A stretch of DNA of 64,000 nt from Patescibacteria group bacterium (GCA_015493225.1 WGDO01000087.1:514-64513); one strand, 5' to 3'. Counted from the first letter of the stretch, positions 1 to 56,673 are shown. Numbers and translations: made by a program. Notes: generated from the sequence alone by a model not told the origin.

Positions 1-639
1 ATTGATGCTTTTAGATTAGCAGAGATTGGTAAATTAGAACCTAATCTACCTAAATTCTTTGATTCTCGTGAAACCCTTAAAAACAAACGTTTTCAGTCTC
101 TTTTAAAAAATTTAGAAAAGACTAAACAAAGATTTTCAAGAAGTTTAAATGATGCTATCAAGAGTTTTGAAACCTTAGGAGTAACCATGGACTTAACTGC
201 TCTAGAGGAAGCTTTAAAATCAATAGAAACAGCTATTACAGCTTGTAGGAAGATTATAGAAGAAACAGCTGATGACTTCGCTTGTAAAATAGCGGAAACT
301 CCTGGGATCTCTCTTTTTCAAGCTTCTGTTCTTTCTACGGCTATAGCTGGCAGAGAGTTTGATAGTCGTGAAAAACTAGTTGCTTTCTTTGGTTTAGATG
401 TTAGAGCTAGACAATCTGGTAATTGGTCAGGGGCTTCTCATTTGTCTAAGAGAGGTAATGCTTACTATCGTAAAATACTCTTTCAAATTGGTTGGAGTTT
501 AAAACAACATAATGACATTTTTAAAGAGTATTATCAGAGACTGATTAATGATGGAAAGCATTATTTTACAGCTGTTATTGCTACTGCTCGTAAATTTCTT
601 TATTATTTTTTTAAGGTACGGGTTGACTTTTCCTTATAA
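1..639 (+). mobile_element. IS110-family transposase, C-terminal part (5' end truncated by the window edge)
   Basis: Frame 1 is open from nt 1 to the TAA at 637-639. The translation (...FFGLDVRARQSGNWSGASHLSKRGNAYYRKILFQIGWSLKQHNDIFKEYYQRL...) matches the Transposase_20 / IS110-IS116-IS902 C-terminal domain, including the SGKxxxxxxISKRGN signature. The N-terminal DEDD domain lies upstream of the window. Confidence 0.6.
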
Positions 640-4694: not shown

Positions 4695-4786
4695 CACCCC
4701 CTGTGTAAAGGGGGTCAAATTTTCTTGTCATTTTTATTTGTCAACTAGTTGACAAATAAAAATGCCAAGAAAATTTGGGGGTTTTT
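4695..4786. repeat. Long GC-clamped hairpin repeat element, family C (cacccccTGTGTAAAgggggtcaaaTT...AAtttgggggttttt)
   Basis: Perfect palindrome tcaaattttcttgtcatttttatttgtcaac-tag-ttgacaaataaaaatgccaagaaaatttg flanked by a ccccc/ggggg mini-hairpin and a GGGGG-TTTTT tail. Other copies are at 11795, 13383 and 33593. Confidence 0.8.
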
Positions 4787-4871
4787 GAGAATTTTAAGTT
4801 TTAAGCTTTAAATCTGTTCATAGAGGTCATAATTCAATAAAGACCACAAAAAATAAATTTCAAACTAAAAA

Positions 4872-11794: not shown

Positions 11795-11998
11795 CACCCC
11801 CTGTGTAAAGGGGGTCAAATTCTCTCATTACTTTTATTTGTTAACATAGTTAACAAATAAAAGTAATGAGAGAATTTGGGGGGTTTTTCGATTAATTACC
11901 TAAAAACCCCCGAAGCCTGGACAAGTTCTTTTTTAACTTTCTATCGAAAGTTAAAAAAGAACTTGTCCAACCTTCCGCCCCCCCCCCTAAAAAGGGGA
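11795..11998. repeat. Composite repeat: family C hairpin element (11795-11888) followed by family D hairpin element (11903-11998)
   Basis: Family C: caccccctgtgtaaagggggtcaaattctctcattacttttatttgttaacatagttaacaaataaaagtaatgagagaatttggggggttttt. Family D: cccccgaagcctggacaagtt...aacttgtccaaccttccgccccc. Family D recurs inverted at 39645-39730. Confidence 0.8.
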
Positions 11999-19753: not shown

Positions 19754-19800
19754 AAAATTTCAAAATCTATCTATCTACTATTCATCTACTTACTACCAGT

Positions 19801-21114
19801 CTACTTACTACCTACTAATTTTATCCATTTTTTATTTTTTAACTCCGCTGGCAAAAATTCCTGCTGAGCATTTTCTCTCTTGCTGGCCTTTGGGGTATAT
19901 TTATAATCTTTTCCATAGCCAAGGTCTCCCATTAATTTTGTGGGGGCGTTACGGATGTGTAATGGCACCGGAAGGTTTCCTGTTCGTTTAATATCTTCCA
20001 TAACATTTTCGTATGCTTCGTATAACGCAATTGATTTTTTACTCTTAGCCATATAAACCGCCGCCTGAGCCAAATTTACACCGCACTCCGGCATCCCAAT
20101 AAATCGACAAGCATCGTAGGCAGCGGTTGCCTGAGGCAAAGCTAAACTATTCGCTAACCCAATATCTTCACTGGCAAAACGAATTATTCGTCGAGCAATA
20201 TAAAGTGGATCTTCTCCCCCCGCCAACATTCTATTCATCCAATACAAAGTAGCGTTCTCATCTCCACCACGCATTGATTTATGAAAAGCACTAATAATAT
20301 TATAATGCTCATCACCAGCACGGTCGTAAAGTAAATTTGATTTTTGAAGAGCTTGTTCAATGTTCTTTTTGGTGATACATTTATCTTCCCTCTTTCTTAA
20401 AGAGGGACTGGAGGGAGATTTCTTTTTTCTAAAATCCCCCTTTAATCTCCTTTTTTTTAAAGGAGGAAGATTATTTGTCAAATCAACTGCCAGTTCCAGG
20501 GCATTTAACATTGTCCGCGCATCACCATTACTCAATTTTACTAAATATTCTTTATTCTTTTTAGTAATTTTTAACTGTCTATTTCCAATCCCTTTATCTT
20601 TATCCTTCAGGGCCTGATTTAAAATAGCTAATAATTCTTCTTCCGTTAAGCTCTCCAAAACAAACGTCCGACAACGAGAGAGTAACGCGTTGTTAACTTT
20701 AAAACTAGGATTTTCCGTAGTTGCTCCGATTAAAATCATCGTACCATTTTCTACGCTTGGTAAAAAAGCATCCTGTTGGGCTTTATTAAAACGATGGATT
20801 TCATCTATAAACAAAATGGTTTTCTCTCCTAGTCGTTTGTCTTTCTCCGCTCGCTCCACAACGTCTCTAATATCTTTAACTCCAGCATTAATAGCACTAA
20901 TTTGATTAAAATTTGCTTTTGTTTCGTTGGCTATAATCCTAGCCAAGGTTGTCTTGCCCGTTCCCGGCGGGCCCCAAAACAAAAGAGAGGGAATTTTATC
21001 CCCTTGGATTAACTCTCTTAAAATTTTTCCCTCACCAACCAAATGTCTTTGCCCCTGAAATTCTTTCAAACTCCTCGGCCTCATTCGATTAGCAAGCGGT
21101 GACTGAGTTGTCAT
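19801..21114 (-). CDS. rarA: Replication-associated recombination protein A (RarA/MgsA AAA+ ATPase) carrying a repeat-derived in-frame insertion
   Basis: Walker [12 protein letters not shown], Walker [13 protein letters not shown], sensor GATTENP, C-terminal MgsA helical domain. A 27-aa basic insertion [27 protein letters not shown] is encoded by a palindromic repeat copy at about 20386-20470. Confidence 0.88.
20386..20470. repeat. Family A/B-type palindromic repeat copy embedded in-frame in rarA
   Basis: ccctctttcttaaagaggg hairpin, then ggagggagatttc, then aaaatccccctttaatctcctttttttttaaaggagg. These are the same building blocks as the intergenic arrays at 36540-36790 and 55531-55630. Confidence 0.65.
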
Positions 21115-23607: not shown

Positions 23608-23692
23608 GGAGAGTTGCCAGAGCGGTCGAATGGGACACCCTGCTAAGGTGTTGTGCCTCCGGGTACCTAGGGTTCGAATCCCTAACTCTCCG
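23608..23692 (+). tRNA. tRNA-Ser (anticodon GCT)
   Basis: Acceptor GGAGAGT/ACTCTCC, anticodon stem ACACC/GGTGT with loop CTGCTAA, long variable arm, T arm GGTTCGAATCC. Confidence 0.8.
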
Positions 23693-23965
23693 CACTAAAG
23701 TTCGAATCATACAATCAATACTCATTATTCACTCGTATCATATTCTCCACATTAAAAAAATAAAAAGGGCTTGCTAAATGCAACCCTTTTTATTTTATTG
23801 TGATAATAAATCATAGATTATACCCCTATCTACCCCCTCCCCTACTCTCTATTCTCTACTCTCTACTATCTAGTGTCTAGTGTCTAATATCTAGTACCTA
23901 TCTCACCAACGCTTTTTGCTTAAGAGTAGAAAAATAGCTTGTAAAAGTATTTGAACCATAAAATC

Positions 23966-29583: not shown

Positions 29584-29800
29584 CAAATCCACCCCTAACC
29601 ATTTTTTGTTCACGGTTCACAGTTCACAGTTCACGGTTTATTTTTTAAAAAGTTTCACAAGACAGGTGTTGGAGGGAAACTAGATAAATCCACCCCTAAC
29701 CCCTCCTTTATCCCATTACGCCAAGGCTACGCGGGACAAGCGCTGGAGGGGAACTACTATCTACCATCTACTATCTACTATCTACTATCTATCCCCCAAC
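29584..29800. repeat. Composite repeat block: aaatccacccctaacc unit, (gttcac[ag])x4, long family A unit and (ctactatc)n
   Basis: gttcacggttcacagttcacagttcacgg at 29613-29640. The unit aaatccacccctaacccctcctttatcccattacgccaaggctacgcgggacaagcgctggaggggaac is at 29686-29760. ctaccatctactatctactatctactatct is at 29761-29792 and overlaps the last codons and stop of capA-like 29785-30951. Confidence 0.8.
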
Positions 29801-30951
29801 CCAAACTCCCCTTCCTCAATCTGTTTTTTCACATCATCCCCCACCACCGACCTAGTGGATAGATTTTGTAAAAACTTTCCTCGTTGTTCCCCGGCCATCA
29901 ATTCCAATTCTCCACTTCTTTGCTTAAATAATGGTATCAAAGTAAATTTAACTTGTCCATCTCCCAGTAAAACTCCCACTCCTAAAATAGACCGAACATC
30001 TTCAGAAAAATATTGGTCAAAAACAAAATTTCCCAAAGAATAAAAAATCACTTTATTTTTATAAATTTCAATGGGCTGAACCACATGAGGATGAGCGCCG
30101 ATAATCAGATCCGCTCCGGCGTCAATAAACAGATGAGCCAATTTTTGCTGTCGCTCATTATTAACTAATTTATATTCTTGCCCCCAGTGAGGATAAACAA
30201 TCACAAAATCGCTCTGCGTCTTCAGGGTTTTAATAATCTCAACAATTTGCTCCGGAAAAAAACCAGCAAACTGATTATAATTCACAAAACCAATTTTCCG
30301 TCCTCCCACATTCTTTATAATACTCATCTTAGCTAAATCCAAGGGATCTCCAAAATAACCAATACTATTCTTAGTTAAAATCTCCTCTGTCTGTTCTAAA
30401 CCTTCATTATGAAAATTTAAAATATGATTATTACCAATGTTTACCAAATTTATCCGATTAGCCTCCAAAAAATTAATGGCTTGTTCGGAATCAAAAGTAA
30501 AACGAAAGTGATTGGGATTTTCAACCGGCTGACCAACCGACACCGATGGCTTATCGGTAATCGGACCTTCTAAGTTAACCACATTTAAATCCTGTCCCCA
30601 AAATAACCGCTCCAATTTTTCCGTAAAAAATCCCACACCCTTTCTGTCCATCAAAATCCTATTCTGCCGATCCAACATCACATCCCCAAAAAATAACATT
30701 TTTATTTGTTTTATTTTTTTGTTTTGTTTTATTTTTAAATCATCATCCGTCTCAACCCTACCGGTTAAACTACCTAAAATTGTTTTAACATCATTCTTGT
30801 CTTGATTGTTATTTTCAACCTTCCCAATAATATTACCACCACGCACTATCACATTATTATTTGATAAAATATATTTTCCAAACAAAAAAAGAATAACTAT
30901 TAAAATAGCTAAAATTATTACTATAAAAACATTTCTTTTCTTGATGCTCAT
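29785..30951 (-). CDS. CapA-family (poly-gamma-glutamate synthesis-type) metallophosphatase with N-terminal TM anchor
   Basis: MLFFGDVMLDR and HPHWGQEY...GAHPHVVQPIE calcineurin-like phosphoesterase motifs typical of CapA/PgsA. Confidence 0.7.
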   Translation of the reverse strand: MSIKKRNVFIVIILAILIVILFLFGKYILSNNNVIVRGGNIIGKVENNNQDKNDVKTILGSLTGRVETDDDLKIKQNKKIKQIKMLFFGDVMLDRQNRILMDRKGVGFFTEKLERLFWGQDLNVVNLEGPITDKPSVSVGQPVENPNHFRFTFDSEQAINFLEANRINLVNIGNNHILNFHNEGLEQTEEILTKNSIGYFGDPLDLAKMSIIKNVGGRKIGFVNYNQFAGFFPEQIVEIIKTLKTQSDFVIVYPHWGQEYKLVNNERQQKLAHLFIDAGADLIIGAHPHVVQPIEIYKNKVIFYSLGNFVFDQYFSEDVRSILGVGVLLGDGQVKFTLIPLFKQRSGELELMAGEQRGKFLQNLSTRSVVGDDVKKQIEEGEFGLGDR

Positions 30952-33405: not shown

Positions 33406-34251
33406 TTAAAACTCCAAAAACTTCCCTTCCAAATAATTCTTAATTGGCTCGGCGGTGGTTTGGGTAATTTTCTCCGGCAAATTATCCATCGCAAACCAGC
33501 CAATCTTATCACACTTATGAGGCTCCATATTCTTTGGCTGACCACTTTTTATCTTGGCAATAAAATTTAAAGCTACCCAGTGTTCAATTTTTTCACCCCC
33601 TGTGCTGAGCCCAGCGGATGCAGGGTAAAGGGGGTCATCCCCCCTTTCGCGAAAAGGGGGATGGGGAGTTTTTATAATATGATCAGTATGAAGCAAGTAA
33701 CCAACAATCTCCACCTTAATACCCAATTCTTCTTTCATTTCCCTAATCATTGCCTTTTCTGCCGTCTCTCCGAACTTCACCCCTCCACCAGGCTTGCTCC
33801 ACCAACCAGCCTCATTACGAACTTCACCCGCCCGCCGAATTAACAAAACTTCCTTTTTATCATTAAAAATCAAACACCCTCCCCCAACACCAATGTAATC
33901 TTTACCTTTTATTAATTTAGATTGCTCTGCATTGCTAGCTTCTCCGTTAATTATGGCTACTTTATTTTTTCTATAAATAAAAACTTGCCATAAAATTATA
34001 CCCGTAGTTAAAACTCCAAGGCCTTGCCCTATAATTATTACTTTATCATTTTTTAACACTCCATAATATGCCCAAAGCAAATATGCTAGCCAGGCTATAA
34101 CCCAAAATGAAATAGACTGTCCCTCAGTCGACTTCCGTCTATAATTTTTTCTAATTTGATCTGGTAATCCAATAACTTTTACCAATATTCCGATGGCCAG
34201 TGTCAGAAATGATACAACCCCAATAAGTGTAATTGATTGTAATAATTCCAT
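33406..34251 (-). CDS. Membrane-anchored NUDIX hydrolase (3 N-terminal TM helices) carrying an in-frame family C repeat insertion
   Basis: Nudix box GGGVKFGETAEKAMIREMKEELGI. Three N-terminal hydrophobic helices. The 27-aa segment KTPHPPFRERGDDPLYPASAGLSTGGE is encoded by repeat copy 33593-33673. Confidence 0.8.
   Translation of the reverse strand: MELLQSITLIGVVSFLTLAIGILVKVIGLPDQIRKNYRRKSTEGQSISFWVIAWLAYLLWAYYGVLKNDKVIIIGQGLGVLTTGIILWQVFIYRKNKVAIINGEASNAEQSKLIKGKDYIGVGGGCLIFNDKKEVLLIRRAGEVRNEAGWWSKPGGGVKFGETAEKAMIREMKEELGIKVEIVGYLLHTDHIIKTPHPPFRERGDDPLYPASAGLSTGGEKIEHWVALNFIAKIKSGQPKNMEPHKCDKIGWFAMDNLPEKITQTTAEPIKNYLEGKFLEF
33593..33673. repeat. Family C repeat copy (81 nt, 3n) inside the NUDIX CDS
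   Basis: caccccctgtg...cagggtaaagggggtcatcccccctttcgcgaaaagggggatggggagttttt. It has the same termini as 4695-4786 and 11795-11888 and an internal ccccccttt-cgcg-aaaggggg hairpin. Confidence 0.75.
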
Positions 34252-35919: not shown

Positions 35920-35956
35920 CTCTCTAAAAAATAAAGACACTTGAAGTGTCTTTATT
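35920..35956 (-). terminator. Rho-independent terminator of rnpB
   Basis: Minus strand: AAAGACACUUCAAGUGUCUUU followed by AUUUUUU. Confidence 0.65.
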
Positions 35957-35958
35957 TT

Positions 35959-36382
35959 GATGACCAATCTTTAAGCCGGGTTCTGTTTAGATAATCATTT
36001 ATCTACGTTAATTATTACTAATTAACTTTAGCGGTTCAAATTCTAAATTAATAGAAAATACGACTTTACATCAGATAGGGTTTACCACTCAATCCAACCC
36101 ATACTAATGAACTGGATTTCAAACTCGCCATCACTGACAAGCGCGCCGGGTAATTCCGAAAAATACCCCGACACTTTTCACCTTTCTCCAGCTCCTGCAA
36201 GCAGGGGCTGGGTAGTATAGTCTCTGCGGCACTGTCCCTGAATAATTATTACTAATTATCCGATTGGCGTTACCAATTATCATTAAGAATTTAATCTCAC
36301 GATGCCCAGACTTTCCTCCCAGTCCTGAATTTAAAATTTTTTAATAAAAAATTTTAAATTCAGAGCTGGGTAATTATCAAAT
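35959..36382 (-). ncRNA. rnpB: RNase P RNA (bacterial type A-like)
   Basis: Minus-strand transcript contains the P4 5' strand GGAGGAAAGUCUGGGC (rc of 36306-36321), the P4 3' strand ACAGAACCCGGCUUA (rc of 35972-35986), and an AGAAAGGUGAAAAGUG...CGGGGUA...UACCCGG P10-P12-like region. A P3 hairpin and a P1 pairing UUGAU...AUCAA are present. No ORF covers this 1.1-kb gap. Confidence 0.8.
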
Positions 36383-36539
36383 CAGTCCTACCTAATATAC
36401 CAGAAAAACCCTCCTTTGTCAAGATAATTTGTACATTTCACAGAAGTTAAAGTAATCAATAGCTTATCCCAAAGTTAGTGCGGTCGTCGCAACTTTGGGA
36501 AAAATTATTGCCAATAATGTAGATTGCTGTTAAACTAAA

Positions 36540-36790
36540 ATTGGTTAATAAATCCACCCCCAACCCCTCCTTTACCAAAGGAGGGGAACCAAAGAAAATC
36601 CACCCCCAACCCCTCCTTTTTTAGCAAAGGGGAAATTTTCCACAGCTTCCACCCTTTGTAAAGGGGAGATTGAGGGGGGATTTTAAAACTAAATCCACCC
36701 CTAACCCCTCCTTTACAAAGGAGGGGAAATAAGGAAATCCGCCCCTAATCCCTCCTTTATTAAAGGAGGAGAACAAAAAGGAGAAACTAA
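36540..36790. repeat. Tandem array of 5-6 palindromic units (aaatccacccctaacccctcctttNNNaaaggaggggaa, plus the cccccctttgtaaagggggg attgagggggg variant)
   Basis: Units abut directly, each about 40-45 nt. Each is a stem-loop with a 10-bp GC-rich stem and contains an AAGGAGG Shine-Dalgarno-like core. Confidence 0.85.
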
Positions 36791-37111: not shown

Positions 37112-37374
37112 CCGGCCCCTACGAAAATATGAATTAATTTTAAATTTTAAGTTTTAAATTTTAAATGAGTTTTAAATTATCTAATTTTTAATATTAAATA
37201 TACAACCATCACAAAACAACAAGGCTCTGAATGATGCGTAAAATTAATAGAAATTAAAAACTTAAAATTCAAAATTAAATATTTAATCAAAATTCCAAAT
37301 TTTTCAAACATTGATTATTGGGATTTGTGATTTATTTGTTTCTTGAAATTTGTATCTTGGAAATTTATAAAATT

Positions 37375-37906
<532 letters not shown>

Positions 37907-38764: not shown

Positions 38765-38910
38765 GCTATTTCCTAGCTTCCCCCCTTTGTAAAGGGGGGA
38801 TTGAGGGGGGATTTTAAAGATTTTAAAACTAAAAAACTAAATCCACCCCTAACCCCTCCTTTATCCCACTACGCCTAAACGGCTACGCAGGACAAGCGCT
38901 AGAGGGGGAA
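38765..38910. repeat. Family B plus family A palindromic units
   Basis: cctagcttcccccctttgtaaaggggggattgaggggggatttt followed by aaatccacccctaacccctcctttatcccactacgcctaaacggctacgcaggacaagcgctagaggggg. Confidence 0.8.
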
Positions 38911-43620: not shown

Positions 43621-43882
43621 GCAAATCTCAAGATACAAGTTACAAGATACAAACAATTTTCAATAACCAAATCCCAAACTTTTCAAACATTGGTTATTGG
43701 GATTTGTGATTTGTTTGTTTCTTGGTGTTTGTATCTTGGAAATTTATAAATTTGAATCCACCTCTAACCCCTCCTTTATCCCACTACGCCATCCCACTTC
43801 GCTAAAGCTACGAGGGACAAGAGGCTATGCGGGACAAGCGCCGGAGGGGAACTACTACCTACTACCTACTACCTACTACTTA
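43621..43882. repeat. Composite: family F long palindrome plus family A unit plus (ctactacc)n
   Basis: caagatacaagttacaagatacaaacaa...ttggttattgggatttgtgatttgtttgtttcttgg... then gaatccacctctaacccctcctttatcccactacgcc...ggacaagcgccggaggggaac, then ctactacctactacctactacctactact. The last supplies the stop of pilC. Confidence 0.8.
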
Positions 43883-45084
43883 ATACTCATCGCCACCTGA
43901 TAAATCGGCAACAAAATTGCTGAAACCAATATACCAACACCTATTGCCAAAACAACCATCAAAACTGGTTCAATAAGAGTAGAAAAATTCTTTACCATTC
44001 GATCCGATTCTTTCATATAAAATTCTGTCACCTTCCCCAAGGAAAAAGACATCCGTCCTGTGTGTTCACCCACTTCCACCATTTGAGTCATCACCGGCGG
44101 AATTTCCTCATAGCGATTTAAAACTTCTGATAAATTACCACCCTTTTTAATTTCCTCTGCAGCCGTCTTCACTATATATTTATAAACATTATTACCAATA
44201 ACATCCGCCGTAATAGATAAAGCCACTGTAATTGGTAAACCACTCTGCAATAAAGTACCTAAATTTTCTGAAAATCTAGCAATATAAACATTATGTAAAA
44301 TTTTACCAACAACTGGCAGTTTTAAAACCAACTGATCAAATTGATTTTTCCCATCTTCCGTTTTTAAATAATAAACAATACCAAAAATGCCCGCTCCTAC
44401 TCCAACAATAACCGCCCACCAATAATTTACCATAAAATTACTAGTCCAAATTAAAATTTTAGTTTGCAAGGGCAAATCCTCTCCAGCCTCTGTTAAGATG
44501 TCTAAAAGCTTAGGAATAACCGTTACCATCATTAAAGAACCAACTGCTATCATTGCCGTAATAATAAAAGCAGGATAATACATTGCTCCCTTTAAACTGG
44601 AAGATAATTCATAATTTCTCTCCATACTATCAGCCAATTTATTCAAAGATTCCTGCAAAGTTCCAGACGCTTCACCAGCTTTAACCATGCTAACATAAAA
44701 ATGGGAAAAAGTATCAGGATGTTTTGACATCGCTTCTGATAATGATGAACCACCATCAATATCAAACATTATAGATTTTAATTTCAAAGCAAAAAATTTA
44801 TTATCGATCTGATTAGAGATTGATTCCAAGGCAGCCAATAAAGGAACTTTTGAGTCTATTAGAGTAGCCAATTGTCGAGAAAAAATTACAAATTCTCTAG
44901 CACCAACACCTTCCCAAAGTTTAGAAACCATCATCGTCAAACTATTGGGTCTTAACTCTTTTAATTGAATATCAGAAATTCCTGAACCCAACAACAATCT
45001 TTCCGCTGCTCGCTGAGAAATAGTTTCCACTATCCCCTTTTGAACTTTACCTTCTCGATTAACGCCTTGATATTTAAAACGCAT
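43876..45084 (-). CDS. pilC: Type IV pilus inner-membrane platform protein (GspF/PilC family)
   Basis: Two GspF repeats and three TM helices. Length 402 aa. Confidence 0.85.
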   Translation of the reverse strand: MRFKYQGVNREGKVQKGIVETISQRAAERLLLGSGISDIQLKELRPNSLTMMVSKLWEGVGAREFVIFSRQLATLIDSKVPLLAALESISNQIDNKFFALKLKSIMFDIDGGSSLSEAMSKHPDTFSHFYVSMVKAGEASGTLQESLNKLADSMERNYELSSSLKGAMYYPAFIITAMIAVGSLMMVTVIPKLLDILTEAGEDLPLQTKILIWTSNFMVNYWWAVIVGVGAGIFGIVYYLKTEDGKNQFDQLVLKLPVVGKILHNVYIARFSENLGTLLQSGLPITVALSITADVIGNNVYKYIVKTAAEEIKKGGNLSEVLNRYEEIPPVMTQMVEVGEHTGRMSFSLGKVTEFYMKESDRMVKNFSTLIEPVLMVVLAIGVGILVSAILLPIYQVAMSIK

Positions 45085-45119: not shown

Positions 45120-45340
45120 TTAAATCCCCCTTCAATCCCCCCTTTACAAAATGGGGAAACTGTAAACACACCCCTTCTCAAAAAGAAGAAACTAAAAATG
45201 GATTTCCTTAGTTCCCCTCCGGCACTTGTCCCGCGTAGCCTTGGCGCAGTGGGATAAAGGAGGGGTTAGGGGTGGATTTCCTTAGTTCCCCTCCTTTGTA
45301 AAGAAGGGGTTAGGGGTGGATTTTAAAAAATAAATAATCC
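45120..45340. repeat. Family B and A palindromic units in reverse orientation
   Basis: aaatcccccttcaatcccccctttacaaaatggggaaa is the rc of the family B unit. ggatttccttagttcccctccggcacttgtcccgcgtagccttggcgcagtgggataaaggaggggttaggggtggattt is the rc of the long family A unit. Confidence 0.8.
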
Positions 45341-55500: not shown

Positions 55501-55770
55501 TAGTTCACAGTTCACAGTTCACGGTTCACAGTTTCTTTCCTAGCTTCCCCTCTTTGCAAAGGGGGGATTGAGGGGAATTTCCATGGCTTCCTCCCCCCTT
55601 TGTAAAGGGGGGATTGAGGGGGGATTTTAAGAATTTTAAGTTTTAAATTTTTCTGCCCCAGACGGACCAGCCTGGAGCTAGAAATTTCACGAATTAGTTG
55701 AAATCCACCCCTAACCCCTCCTTTGAGAAAGGAGGGGAACTACTTATCTACTATCTACTATCTACCCCTC
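55501..55770. repeat. Composite: (gttcac[ag])x4, two family B units, one family A unit and (ctactatc)n
   Basis: gttcacagttcacagttcacggttcacag. cctagcttcccctctttgcaaaggggggattgagggg and cccccctttgtaaaggggggattgaggggggatttt. aaatccacccctaacccctcctttgagaaaggaggggaactacttatctactatctactatctac. The last overlaps the ppaC stop. Confidence 0.85.
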
Positions 55771-56673
55771 AAACACTGGCACAATCTGTTTCTTCCTAGA
55801 AACCAATTTATCCACAAATAAAATCCCGTTCTGATCTTCAGCGGAAAATAATTCGGTGAATAATTTTTTGGCTTCTTCATCGGAGTAAAGCGTATAGGAT
55901 TTTTCATTAAGAATATCAACGATTGTAAAATAAACTGCCTTCAAGTTATCTTTTTCTTTTATCTCAGCCAGTTTTTCAAAAATTTCTTCCCTTCTTTTCA
56001 AACCAAAATCAACATCCGTTGTTTCCATCACCCCAATTCCATATTTTCCATCCTTAAAATTAAACTCCTTATAATCCAACCTAATTAAATTCTCCGTAGA
56101 AATATCCCCTAAATCACTTTTAGCTTTAAACATTTCCAAACTAAATTGTTCCAAATCTTCCAATCCCACTATTTCGTTCAATCCTTCCACTAATTTCTTA
56201 TCAGTATCGGTAGTAGTTGGTGAACGAAAAAACAAAGTATCAGAAATAATACCCGCCAATAACAAACTAGCGATTTTTTTGTCCAAATCAATACCCTCAG
56301 AAAAATATTTTTCTGCAACAATTGAACAAGACGACCCAAGTGGTTTAACGCAAATTGAAATTGGTTTATCCGTCTTCAGGTCAACCTTATGATGATCAAT
56401 AACTTCCACCAAACTCAATTCGGCTAAATTATCTATGGCCTGCCCAACTTCATTATGATCCAATAAGACAACTTCTGAACCAGCTTCTAACTCAGAAATT
56501 ATTTCTGGTCTTTTCATATCAAATTTATCAAACACAAATTGTGTTTCTTTATTCAACTCCCCTAGGGCAAAAGCTTGTGCTTCTTCGCCTTGCTGTTTCA
56601 AATATTCAGCATAGGCTACCGCACTACACACCGAATCAGTATCCGGATTTTTATGACCAATTACATTTTTCAT
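55762..56673 (-). CDS. ppaC: Manganese-dependent inorganic pyrophosphatase (family II, DHH/DHHA2)
   Basis: N-terminal GHKNPDTDSVCSAVAYA, DHH motif LLDHNE, C-terminal DHHA2 domain. About 300 aa, as for PpaC. Confidence 0.8.
   Translation of the reverse strand: MKNVIGHKNPDTDSVCSAVAYAEYLKQQGEEAQAFALGELNKETQFVFDKFDMKRPEIISELEAGSEVVLLDHNEVGQAIDNLAELSLVEVIDHHKVDLKTDKPISICVKPLGSSCSIVAEKYFSEGIDLDKKIASLLLAGIISDTLFFRSPTTTDTDKKLVEGLNEIVGLEDLEQFSLEMFKAKSDLGDISTENLIRLDYKEFNFKDGKYGIGVMETTDVDFGLKRREEIFEKLAEIKEKDNLKAVYFTIVDILNEKSYTLYSDEEAKKLFTELFSAEDQNGILFVDKLVSRKKQIVPVFEG

Follow-up and report, generated by a model that had tools for sequence, protein, structure and literature searches.

An in-frame dimer of a dispersed palindromic repeat in the lid loop of RarA from a Patescibacteria group bacterium

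Dispersed palindromes that lie in frame within genes are the defining oddity of the Rickettsia palindromic elements (RPEs) (Ogata et al. 2000 Science 290:347; 2002 Genome Res 12:808; summarised in PMC10969869). Repetitive extragenic palindromic (REP) sequences of the GTAG/CGTC kind are also found inside genes in several species, and the part of the report of Di Nocera et al. (2013, PMC3733652) drawn on here states that more than half of these intragenic copies are dimers or groups encoding 20-30 residues, that they often lie in replication and repair genes (uvrA, uvrB, dnaE and recBCD), and that they are probably neutral, being placed in linkers or loops. The TMECO (BoxC/PIT) elements have the consensus CCCTCNCCC N3-6 GGGNGAGGG N3 GGGNGAGGG (PMC4666352), and in their type A the second loop is TTA and some copies occur in inverted pairs (Holder et al. 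2015, PMC4666352). Oligonucleotides of TMECO form a triplex in vitro but none has been detected in double-stranded DNA or in vivo; in E. coli MG1655 the elements are always intergenic and are not tied to known mobile elements, in E. coli their loci mark unusually variable local regions, and PIT elements have no promoter or terminator activity (PMC4666352). Here we describe two inverted copies of a unit of this design in frame within the gene for the ATPase RarA (rarA, also mgsA) on a stretch of 64,000 nucleotides from a Patescibacteria group bacterium (GCA_015493225.1, WGDO01000087.1:514-64513; the whole stretch is called the window). The insert is probably a tolerated and partly decaying selfish repeat dimer in a permissive loop of the RarA lid.

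This locus is like RPEs in that a dispersed palindrome lies in frame in a conserved housekeeping gene, adds a peptide at a tolerant site and has intergenic copies too (PMC10969869). It is unlike RPEs, which are about 100-150 bp and found in Rickettsia only, in that the units are 38-42 nt and the dimer 84 nt, each unit is built as C-stem/G-stem/mirrored G-stem and the host belongs to the Patescibacteria; size and host set it apart, as does the fact that one RarA loop was hit repeatedly and carries alternative cassettes. The rarA insert fits closely with intragenic REPs, which in the part of PMC3733652 drawn on here are 20-40-bp GC-rich hairpin repeats with frequent inverted dimers. Unlike the GTAG/CGTC REPs, the window units have no consistent terminal tag and have a third, mirrored G-segment, and that part of the report does not list rarA with the repair genes. 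On inspection, a CTAC-rich tract (GGAGGGGAA-CTAC..., GTAG when read on the opposite strand) adjoins four of the units, and the other units, including both in rarA, have no tag. As in a REPIN, two inverted units and a short spacer make up the repeated entity (PMC3116915, PMC3337134), but REPINs are lineage-specific whereas the core of the present unit recurs across phyla, and among the 58 long open reading frames (ORFs) of the window there was no Pfam match to Y1_Tnp, the Y1 transposase (RAYT, REP-associated tyrosine transposase).

With the BoxC/PIT/TMECO elements the units share a C-rich stem, a loop of 3-6 nt, a G-rich stem, a 3-nt loop and a mirrored second G-rich stem (PMC4666352; Hoyne et al. 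2000 cited therein), as well as inverted pairs, high copy number and the lack of a known associated transposase (PMC4666352). They differ from TMECO in the stem, which is CCCCTCCTTT or TCCCCCCTTT in the window units, and, unlike TMECO in MG1655, the present unit is in frame inside rarA and at least eight other sampled genes. In the literature we found no description of BoxC/PIT/TM units inside coding sequences. What is new here is that an element of this class, earlier described as intergenic, is found inside a gene, that the host is one of the Patescibacteria, that one loop is used recurrently with alternative cassettes and that the same translated core recurs across phyla. The locus joins two subjects, the in-frame selfish repeats of Rickettsia and some REP-rich bacteria, and the BoxC/PIT/TMECO repeats, which till now have been described as intergenic curiosities without a known role. 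A unit of this design would here be translated as part of a conserved repair enzyme, in a Patescibacteria lineage with a small genome, and in several phyla the core stands in frame in unrelated proteins.

The repeat dimer in rarA

The rarA ORF is intact and has 437 codons (window 19801-21114, minus strand). Its product has, above the Pfam cut-offs, PF00004 AAA at residues 44-151, PF16193 AAA_assoc_2 at 178-282 and PF12002 MgsA_C at 283-432, and it is homologous to solved RarA structures (E 1e-109 with E. coli RarA, PDB 3PVS). With this AAA+ ATPase core, the AAA_assoc_2 lid, MgsA_C and all of the family-invariant residues, it is a member of the RarA/MgsA family. The nearest named homologs are from Candidatus Moranbacteria, with at most 76% identity, and from other Patescibacteria, and on this basis the host is probably Moranbacteria-like; the G+C content of the window is about 33%. 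The insert and its parts, in window coordinates, are the following.

20386-20469, minus strand: in-frame repeat-derived insert, 84 nt or 28 codons (residues 216-243), made of two inverted units and a spacer
20432-20469, minus strand: unit 1 in coding order; its coding strand is the G-rich strand; decayed, CTTCCTCCTTT/AAAAAAAAGGAGA/TTA/AAGGGGGATTT
20422-20431, no strand: A/T-rich spacer of 10 nt between the inverted units
20386-20421, plus strand: unit 2 in coding order; its G-rich strand is the plus (template) strand; potential-triplex motif intact
20387-20395, plus strand: C-stem of unit 2, TCCCTCTTT, followed by the loop CTT
20399-20407, plus strand: G-stem 1 of unit 2, AAAGAGGGA, followed by the loop CTGG
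20412-20420, plus strand: G-stem 2 of unit 2, AGGGAGATT

When an nhmmer profile was made from the 13 intergenic units only, leaving out the rarA copies, it matched both of these copies over the full length: unit 2 at 20386-20421 (minus, E 1.6e-5) and unit 1 at 20432-20469 (plus, model positions 2-39, E 2.9e-5), the strands being those given by the search. The hairpin module CCCTCTTTNNNAAAGAGGG had three matches with up to two mismatches compared to 0.03 expected. Because of this intergenic-only profile and this module count, the similarity between the rarA insert and the intergenic units is beyond chance. The window has 15 full units, of which only the two in rarA are inside a long ORF, and the unit-spacer-unit layout in rarA is the same as that of the intergenic head-to-head dimers at 36647-36727 and from 38778 to about 38863, and of the dimer at locus L117. 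A conserved ORF thus contains a complete member of a dispersed family, which is in frame and has no stop codon, and there are orthologs free of the insert. The rarA insert derives from a dispersed palindromic repeat, and the proposal of the initial annotation that it is built from the hairpin modules of the intergenic DNA is borne out. The DNA which that annotation quoted for 20386-20470 is present, except that its T-run had one T too many, and the loop of 27 residues that it described is residues 217-243 of a repeat-derived stretch that has 28. Its families A and B are not distinct, since alignment of the units showed one element read on opposite strands; within this single family, alignment of the intergenic units gave two sub-variants, ATCCACCCCTAACCCCTCCTTT and ATCCCCCCTCAATCCCCCCTTT.

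On the G-rich strand the unit consists of a C-stem, CCCCTCCTTT, a loop of 2-5 nt, a G-stem, AAAGGAGGGG, then TTA or TTG, a mirrored G-stem, GGGGTGGATT, and ATTT. The third segment mirrors the second and so each position can form a purine-motif triad (G*G-C, A*A-T or T*A-T). The triplex test that we used looks for a C-stem, a loop, a G-stem 1 in Watson-Crick pairing with the C-stem, a loop of 3-4 nt and an antiparallel G-stem 2, with stems of at least 8, at most one mismatch and the triads G*G, A*A or T*A. In this test 8 of the 13 intergenic units had 9-10 consecutive triads, and none of 200 shuffles scored as high. In rarA, unit 2 had 9 of 9 triads, again with 0 of 200 shuffles as high, and its stem AAAGAGGGA is seen nowhere else in the window. 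Unit 1 failed the test in the window, whereas in the L001 ortholog it is intact with 9 triads. The computed hairpin folding was -17.2 kcal/mol (z -2.8) as DNA, and the predicted mRNA fold across the insert is a long imperfect hairpin of -35.7 kcal/mol (z -4.9). The strict TMECO consensus given above had no match in the window and therefore the units are a different sequence family with the same design; judged from their sequence, they have the BoxC/PIT/TMECO type of potential intrastrand triplex architecture. In Rfam no curated RNA family lay over the units and there were only sub-threshold chance matches to miRNA hairpins, and the search for terminators and promoters in the insert gave one weak antisense terminator-like match, at 20446-20466, the totals being not above those of shuffles.

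The receiving loop and the alleles at the site

The insert lies inside the lid domain, where 105 residues align to the 81-position AAA_assoc_2 profile, and not in the C-terminal helical domain as the initial annotation had placed it; both Pfam and AlphaFold put it in a loop of the lid and outside MgsA_C. In the AlphaFold model made with an alignment of 92 sequences, the mean predicted local distance difference test score (pLDDT) was 87.4 and residues 216-244 were a coil between helix 199-215 and strand 245-247. The 10-residue block means over 221-240 were 50 and 47 and the score was below 50 at 231-239, which makes this the weakest internal stretch of the model. An earlier run with 40 close homologs had a mean pLDDT of 63.5 and a poor C-terminal domain; it agreed on the coil and was replaced by the run with 92 sequences. 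The insert is thus predicted to be in a loop that is compatible with the fold; the initial annotation had proposed to see whether it is a disordered surface loop, and the model gives a low-confidence coil. It had also been said that characterised RarA proteins lack the segment, and this holds: the alignments to 3PVS and 8G28 break exactly at the insert.

In most of 120 RarA homologs the linker at this site is 5-17 residues long, and it is 8 residues in P0013, P0026 and P0028. The site is empty in L003 (P0013) and L009 (P0026), where the 8-residue linker has no repeat. L001 (P0003) carries one near-consensus unit of 42 nt, CTCCCTCCTTTGAAAAAGGGGGGATTAAGGGGGGATTTTAAA, and the window and L004 (P0002) carry two units. 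An in-frame gap or deletion of 33 nt separates the one-unit from the two-unit allele; in our reading of the alignment it is flanked by short direct repeats (TTTAGAAAAAAG / TTTAAGAAAGAG), the outcome expected of slippage during replication of a palindrome. No target-site duplication was seen when filled and empty sites were compared visually, the flanks being too diverged for certainty. The insert was found in independent assemblies from different samples (P0001 in two contigs, and P0002 and P0003 each in NCBI and in ENA), and P0003-P0006 are four distinct insert-carrying proteins from different sources. This series of alleles, which are empty, with one unit, with two units or with other cassettes, is material for the study of how such a repeat enters, decays, is exchanged and yields new loop sequence.

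The differences in unit 1 between the window and L001/L004 are mostly G-to-A on the coding strand, which in this unit is the purine-rich strand. Thus, L001 has AAA AAG GGG GGA TTA AGG GGG GAT (KKGGLRGD) where the window has AAA AAA AGG AGA TTA AAG GGG GAT (KKRRLKGD). The insert of the window has 12 Lys/Arg among its 28 residues, and its basic Arg and Lys are there because G-to-A decay turned Gly codons into Arg/Lys codons and not because of selection for charge. Such decay is as expected because the genome has only about 33% G+C.

When the 27 closest RarA homologs were examined, 22 had linkers of 21-53 residues of several unrelated types, namely a potential-triplex monomer or dimer, family D (TRTSASQRGLTRK..., G+C-rich), family C (HPLCKGGQNS..NFGGFL) and others. 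Between genes of the window, 25 nt of family C recur as identical copies (4695-4719 and 11795-11819). The family itself consists of a nested palindrome, CACCCCCTGTGTAAAGGGGGTCAAA...TTTGGGGGTTTTT, about 95 nt long, whose window copies at 4695-4787 and 11795-11887 are intergenic; a 57-nt version of it is translated in frame in the same RarA loop of relatives (L008 3004-3060; L007 6722-6777). In family D a G+C-rich unit, ACGCGGACTTCTGCTTCGCAGCGCGGACTAACGCGGAAGACT, is repeated in tandem, and several relatives have it translated as TRTSASQRGLTRKTT in their RarA loop (L006 995-1120; L007 6628-6685); between L006 and L007 it is 93% identical over 58 nt, whereas the gene backbones are more diverged. 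Triplex-type inserts also occupy this loop in two more distant RarA proteins, about 60% identical to that of the window, as a dimer read in another frame in P0118 (L117) and as one unit, CCTCTCCCCTAACCCCTCTCC..GGAGAGGGG, in P0112 (L118). Potential-triplex units reached the same RarA loop independently in these two lineages.

The backbone of the window gene is nearest to that of L006 (P0007), with 5-10% nucleotide differences, but the cassette of L006 is family D, and the triplex-unit cassette is shared with the more distant backbones of L004 and L001 (about 18-19% differences). These relations were obtained from a linker-free neighbour-joining tree, pairwise identities, sliding windows and informative sites, and all of these agree. 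By the informative sites, the window gene changes from resembling L006 to resembling L004 only within about nt 609-753, an interval that is essentially the cassette. Homologous recombination with extended flanks was rejected as the switch block is restricted to this interval, and because of the same confinement both cassette exchange and repeated replacement in situ fit the data.

Origin and maintenance of the insert

A probable explanation of these observations is that a head-to-head dimer of a small dispersed repeat entered, by insertion or recombination, the surface loop of the AAA+ lid that joins helix 199-215 to strand 245-247, and that it would now be translated as a disordered loop of 28 residues rich in Pro, Ser, Lys and Arg. 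Three properties would have let it survive: a length divisible by three, a frame in use that is free of stops, and a loop in which additional residues are tolerated. The basic character of the loop would be a by-product of the purine-rich coding strand and of AT-biased G-to-A decay, and we infer that the insert has little or no effect on how RarA functions. No transposase for the unit was identified; replication slippage, template switching and homologous exchange are candidates for how the unit may move. As a measure of constraint, silent changes per conserved codon were counted between the window and L004.

5' backbone: 63 of 152 conserved codons
5' flank: 10 of 24
Unit 1: 4 of 9
Spacer and unit 2 (codons 228-241): 0 of 13
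3' flank: 12 of 42
3' backbone: 61 of 131

In unit 1, 4 of 13 residues were replaced and the silent rate was like that of the backbone (41-47%), so that unit 1 behaves as a weakly constrained passenger. Some observations, however, weigh against a dimer that is simply tolerated. In the spacer and unit 2 there was no silent change at all, and compared to the 41-47% of the backbone this has a P of about 8e-4 from two alleles. The unit 2 that is so conserved also keeps its perfect nine-triad motif, and such conservation would not be expected if the insert were an entirely neutral passenger that dates back to the split of the lineages; either selection on the nucleic acid or a recent short conversion tract may account for it. 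The cassette types are patchy over the backbone tree and therefore repeated replacement or exchange is needed and not one old insertion. Finally, three independent inserts in one loop could mean targeting and not only tolerance.

An alternative that we regard as unlikely is that the intact unit (20386-20421), by itself or together with its partner, is kept at the level of DNA or RNA, where it could be a structure-prone site for rearrangement of the linker and exchange of cassettes, or an mRNA hairpin that tunes the translation or stability of rarA. The silent conservation just described would be explained in this way, as would the nine triads built on a non-consensus stem that has co-varied three ways and the stability of the mRNA fold. 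It would also agree with the linker being the most variable part of the gene in the clade, with patchy cassettes, with the unusual variability of TMECO loci in E. coli (PMC4666352), and with a unit core that is nearly identical across phyla and triad-compatible in 110 of the 116 copies listed. The sample, however, is small, being two alleles and 14 codons, and a short conversion tract of recent date would look alike. Decay of the partner unit means that the long hairpin is not maintained, and alleles of the L001 type have lost unit 2 without obvious harm. In the case of TMECO itself, the triplex went undetected in double-stranded DNA and in vivo, and the PIT elements were without promoter or terminator activity (PMC4666352).

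Still less probable, in our view, is domestication, by which the Lys/Arg-rich segment was recruited as a functional surface, for example an arm that contacts DNA or the single-stranded DNA-binding protein (SSB), and is under selection as protein. The number of basic residues and the role of the host protein in DNA metabolism would suit such an arm; moreover, only one residue differs in codons 228-241 between the window and L004, and the reading frame is open in every allele seen. Against this, orthologs that are 80-90% identical have no such segment, half of it or an unrelated sequence there. L001 and L004 do not have the basic residues, which arose recently from Gly codons by G-to-A changes. 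Unit 1 combines its 4 of 13 replacements with silent divergence at the level of the backbone, the conservation of unit 2 extends to silent positions and so goes beyond what selection on the peptide can account for, and the AlphaFold model has a low-confidence coil here. The initial annotation had gone further and proposed that two repeat families were domesticated in two proteins. A second in-frame repeat is indeed present 13 kb away in a NUDIX fusion, but domestication is not supported, as the rarA site varies among orthologs that are 80-90% identical. Expansion of a low-complexity linker in situ, or an assembly artefact, with a merely compositional resemblance to the repeats, is effectively refuted: RarA linkers do vary in length and the insert is compositionally simple, but both units have full-length profile matches of about 1e-5, the layout is that of the intergenic dimers, the L001 allele has a near-consensus unit and the insert is in independent assemblies of different samples.

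The unit in other genomes and the other repeats of the window

One genome per species was scanned with ATCCNCCCYYAAYCCCNCCTTT, which gave at least 107 stretches (loci L010-L116), from more than 100 genomes of many phyla; the matches listed include Acinetobacter, cyanobacteria, Deltaproteobacteria, Clostridia, Bacteroidota, Shapirobacteria, Microgenomates and others. A complementary arm followed the core in 106 of the 116 matches listed, though the pattern did not demand it, and the triad-compatible pairs at the variable position were T/T in 41 copies, C/C in 57 and A/T in 12. Stop-free frames of at least 200 codons spanned the unit in 53 cases among the listed loci. When 10 such frames were compared to Pfam, the unit lay between or within recognised domains in 8, which were the HATPase_c domain of a cyanobacterial hybrid (histidine) kinase, the VWA domain of a VWA protein, HsdR (between Helicase_C and EcoEI_R_C), the CheW domain of CheA, UvrA, a Mg-chelatase-like AAA/VWA protein, Mur_ligase_C and MurG (between its two domains). 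In the ninth, a TraG-like ATPase, the unit followed the sole recognised domain, and the tenth had no Pfam match. Among the listed loci the peptides encoded by the unit take four recurring forms, two per orientation, and those of the rarA insert, one like LPPLKKGGLRGDF and a second form of 12 residues, fall into two of the four. In each orientation one frame appears to be closed off by a stop in the second loop, TAA or TAG. These data carry a warning for annotation, as Pro/Gly/Lys-rich loops in proteins of metagenome-assembled genomes may be derived from repeats.

A much bolder proposal, which we think improbable, is that BoxC/PIT-like potential-triplex units are a pan-bacterial self-propagating class which repeatedly writes stereotyped peptides (PPLxKGGLRGDF, PPFxKGGIxGGF, NPPLxPPLxKGG and KSxPNPSFxKEG) into permissive loops, with the RarA lid loop as a preferred site of landing or exchange and the intact rarA unit kept by selection on DNA structure. 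If this were true, a structure reported to block DNA polymerase in vitro would be linked with the gene of a replication-associated recombination ATPase.

Among the listed loci, several in Acinetobacter have the unit directly upstream of a start codon, with the 3' arm AAGGAGGGGG being a Shine-Dalgarno-like sequence, and L032 (Lyngbya) has a tandem array with a period of 38 nt. Of 2.9 million viral contigs one carried the core pattern, and because of this single match phages are not an obvious vector and carriage by them was set aside.

The intergenic units in the window are the following.

36549-36772, no single strand: array of five units of the same family, including the head-to-head dimer 36647-36727
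37374-37457, plus strand: two tandem units
38778-38814, minus strand: unit of the all-C sub-variant, 10 triads; the dimer extends to about 38863 and its second unit is a half unit
45122-45323, no single strand: units 45122-45158 (plus) and 45287-45323 (minus) and a half unit, 45255-45280, found by nhmmer
55545-55738, no single strand: units 55545-55580 (minus), 55591-55627 (minus) and 55701-55738 (plus)

The largest array, 36549-36772, adjoins RNase P RNA (bacterial class A, 121 bits; 35956-36389, minus strand), and the remaining arrays flank a cluster of type IV pilus and pseudopilin genes at about 37.5-51 kb. CTA-rich tracts on the plus strand at 19759-19822, 29744-29804, 37449-37509, 43839-43891 and 55731-55777 sit exactly on the stop codons of five minus-strand genes, rarA included; on the minus strand they read TAG-rich, with stops in several frames. 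Four CTA-rich tracts directly abut the GGAGGGGAAC end of a potential-triplex unit, and a sixth tract, 23839-23895, is away from any gene end. Composite elements are present at 29686-29760, 38839-38905, 43754-43850 and 45199-45280, each made of a half unit, AAATCCACCCCTAACCCCTCCTTTA, and then a G+C-rich segment of 40-70 nt (..CCCAYTACGCC..GGCTACGCGGGACAAGCGC..) with GGAGGGGAAC at its end, which gives the appearance of a second element nested within loop 1 of the unit.

The PQ-loop/NUDIX fusion ORF (33406-34251, minus strand) has a G+C-rich repeat in frame at 33585-33672 (TPHPPFRERGDDPLYPASAGLSTGG), copies of which are intergenic in related contigs (L006 2579-2626; L007 11921-11944), and this is probably the other in-frame insertion of the initial annotation. 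MurC was considered as a further host, its N-terminal domain being about 23 residues longer than the Pfam profile, and was rejected as no repeat-like sequence was seen in it. The sole transposase-like ORF found in the window is a fragment of the IS110/IS116/IS902 family (PF02371) at 187-639 (plus strand). A tRNA-Ser(gct) at 23608-23693 (plus strand) was found by ARAGORN and not listed by the Rfam scan at the gathering threshold. The neighbours of rarA are a uracil-DNA glycosylase gene and genes of the rhamnose pathway. The GC skew is negative across the whole window (-0.16 to -0.48 per 2-kb window), and 47 of the 58 long ORFs are on the minus strand.

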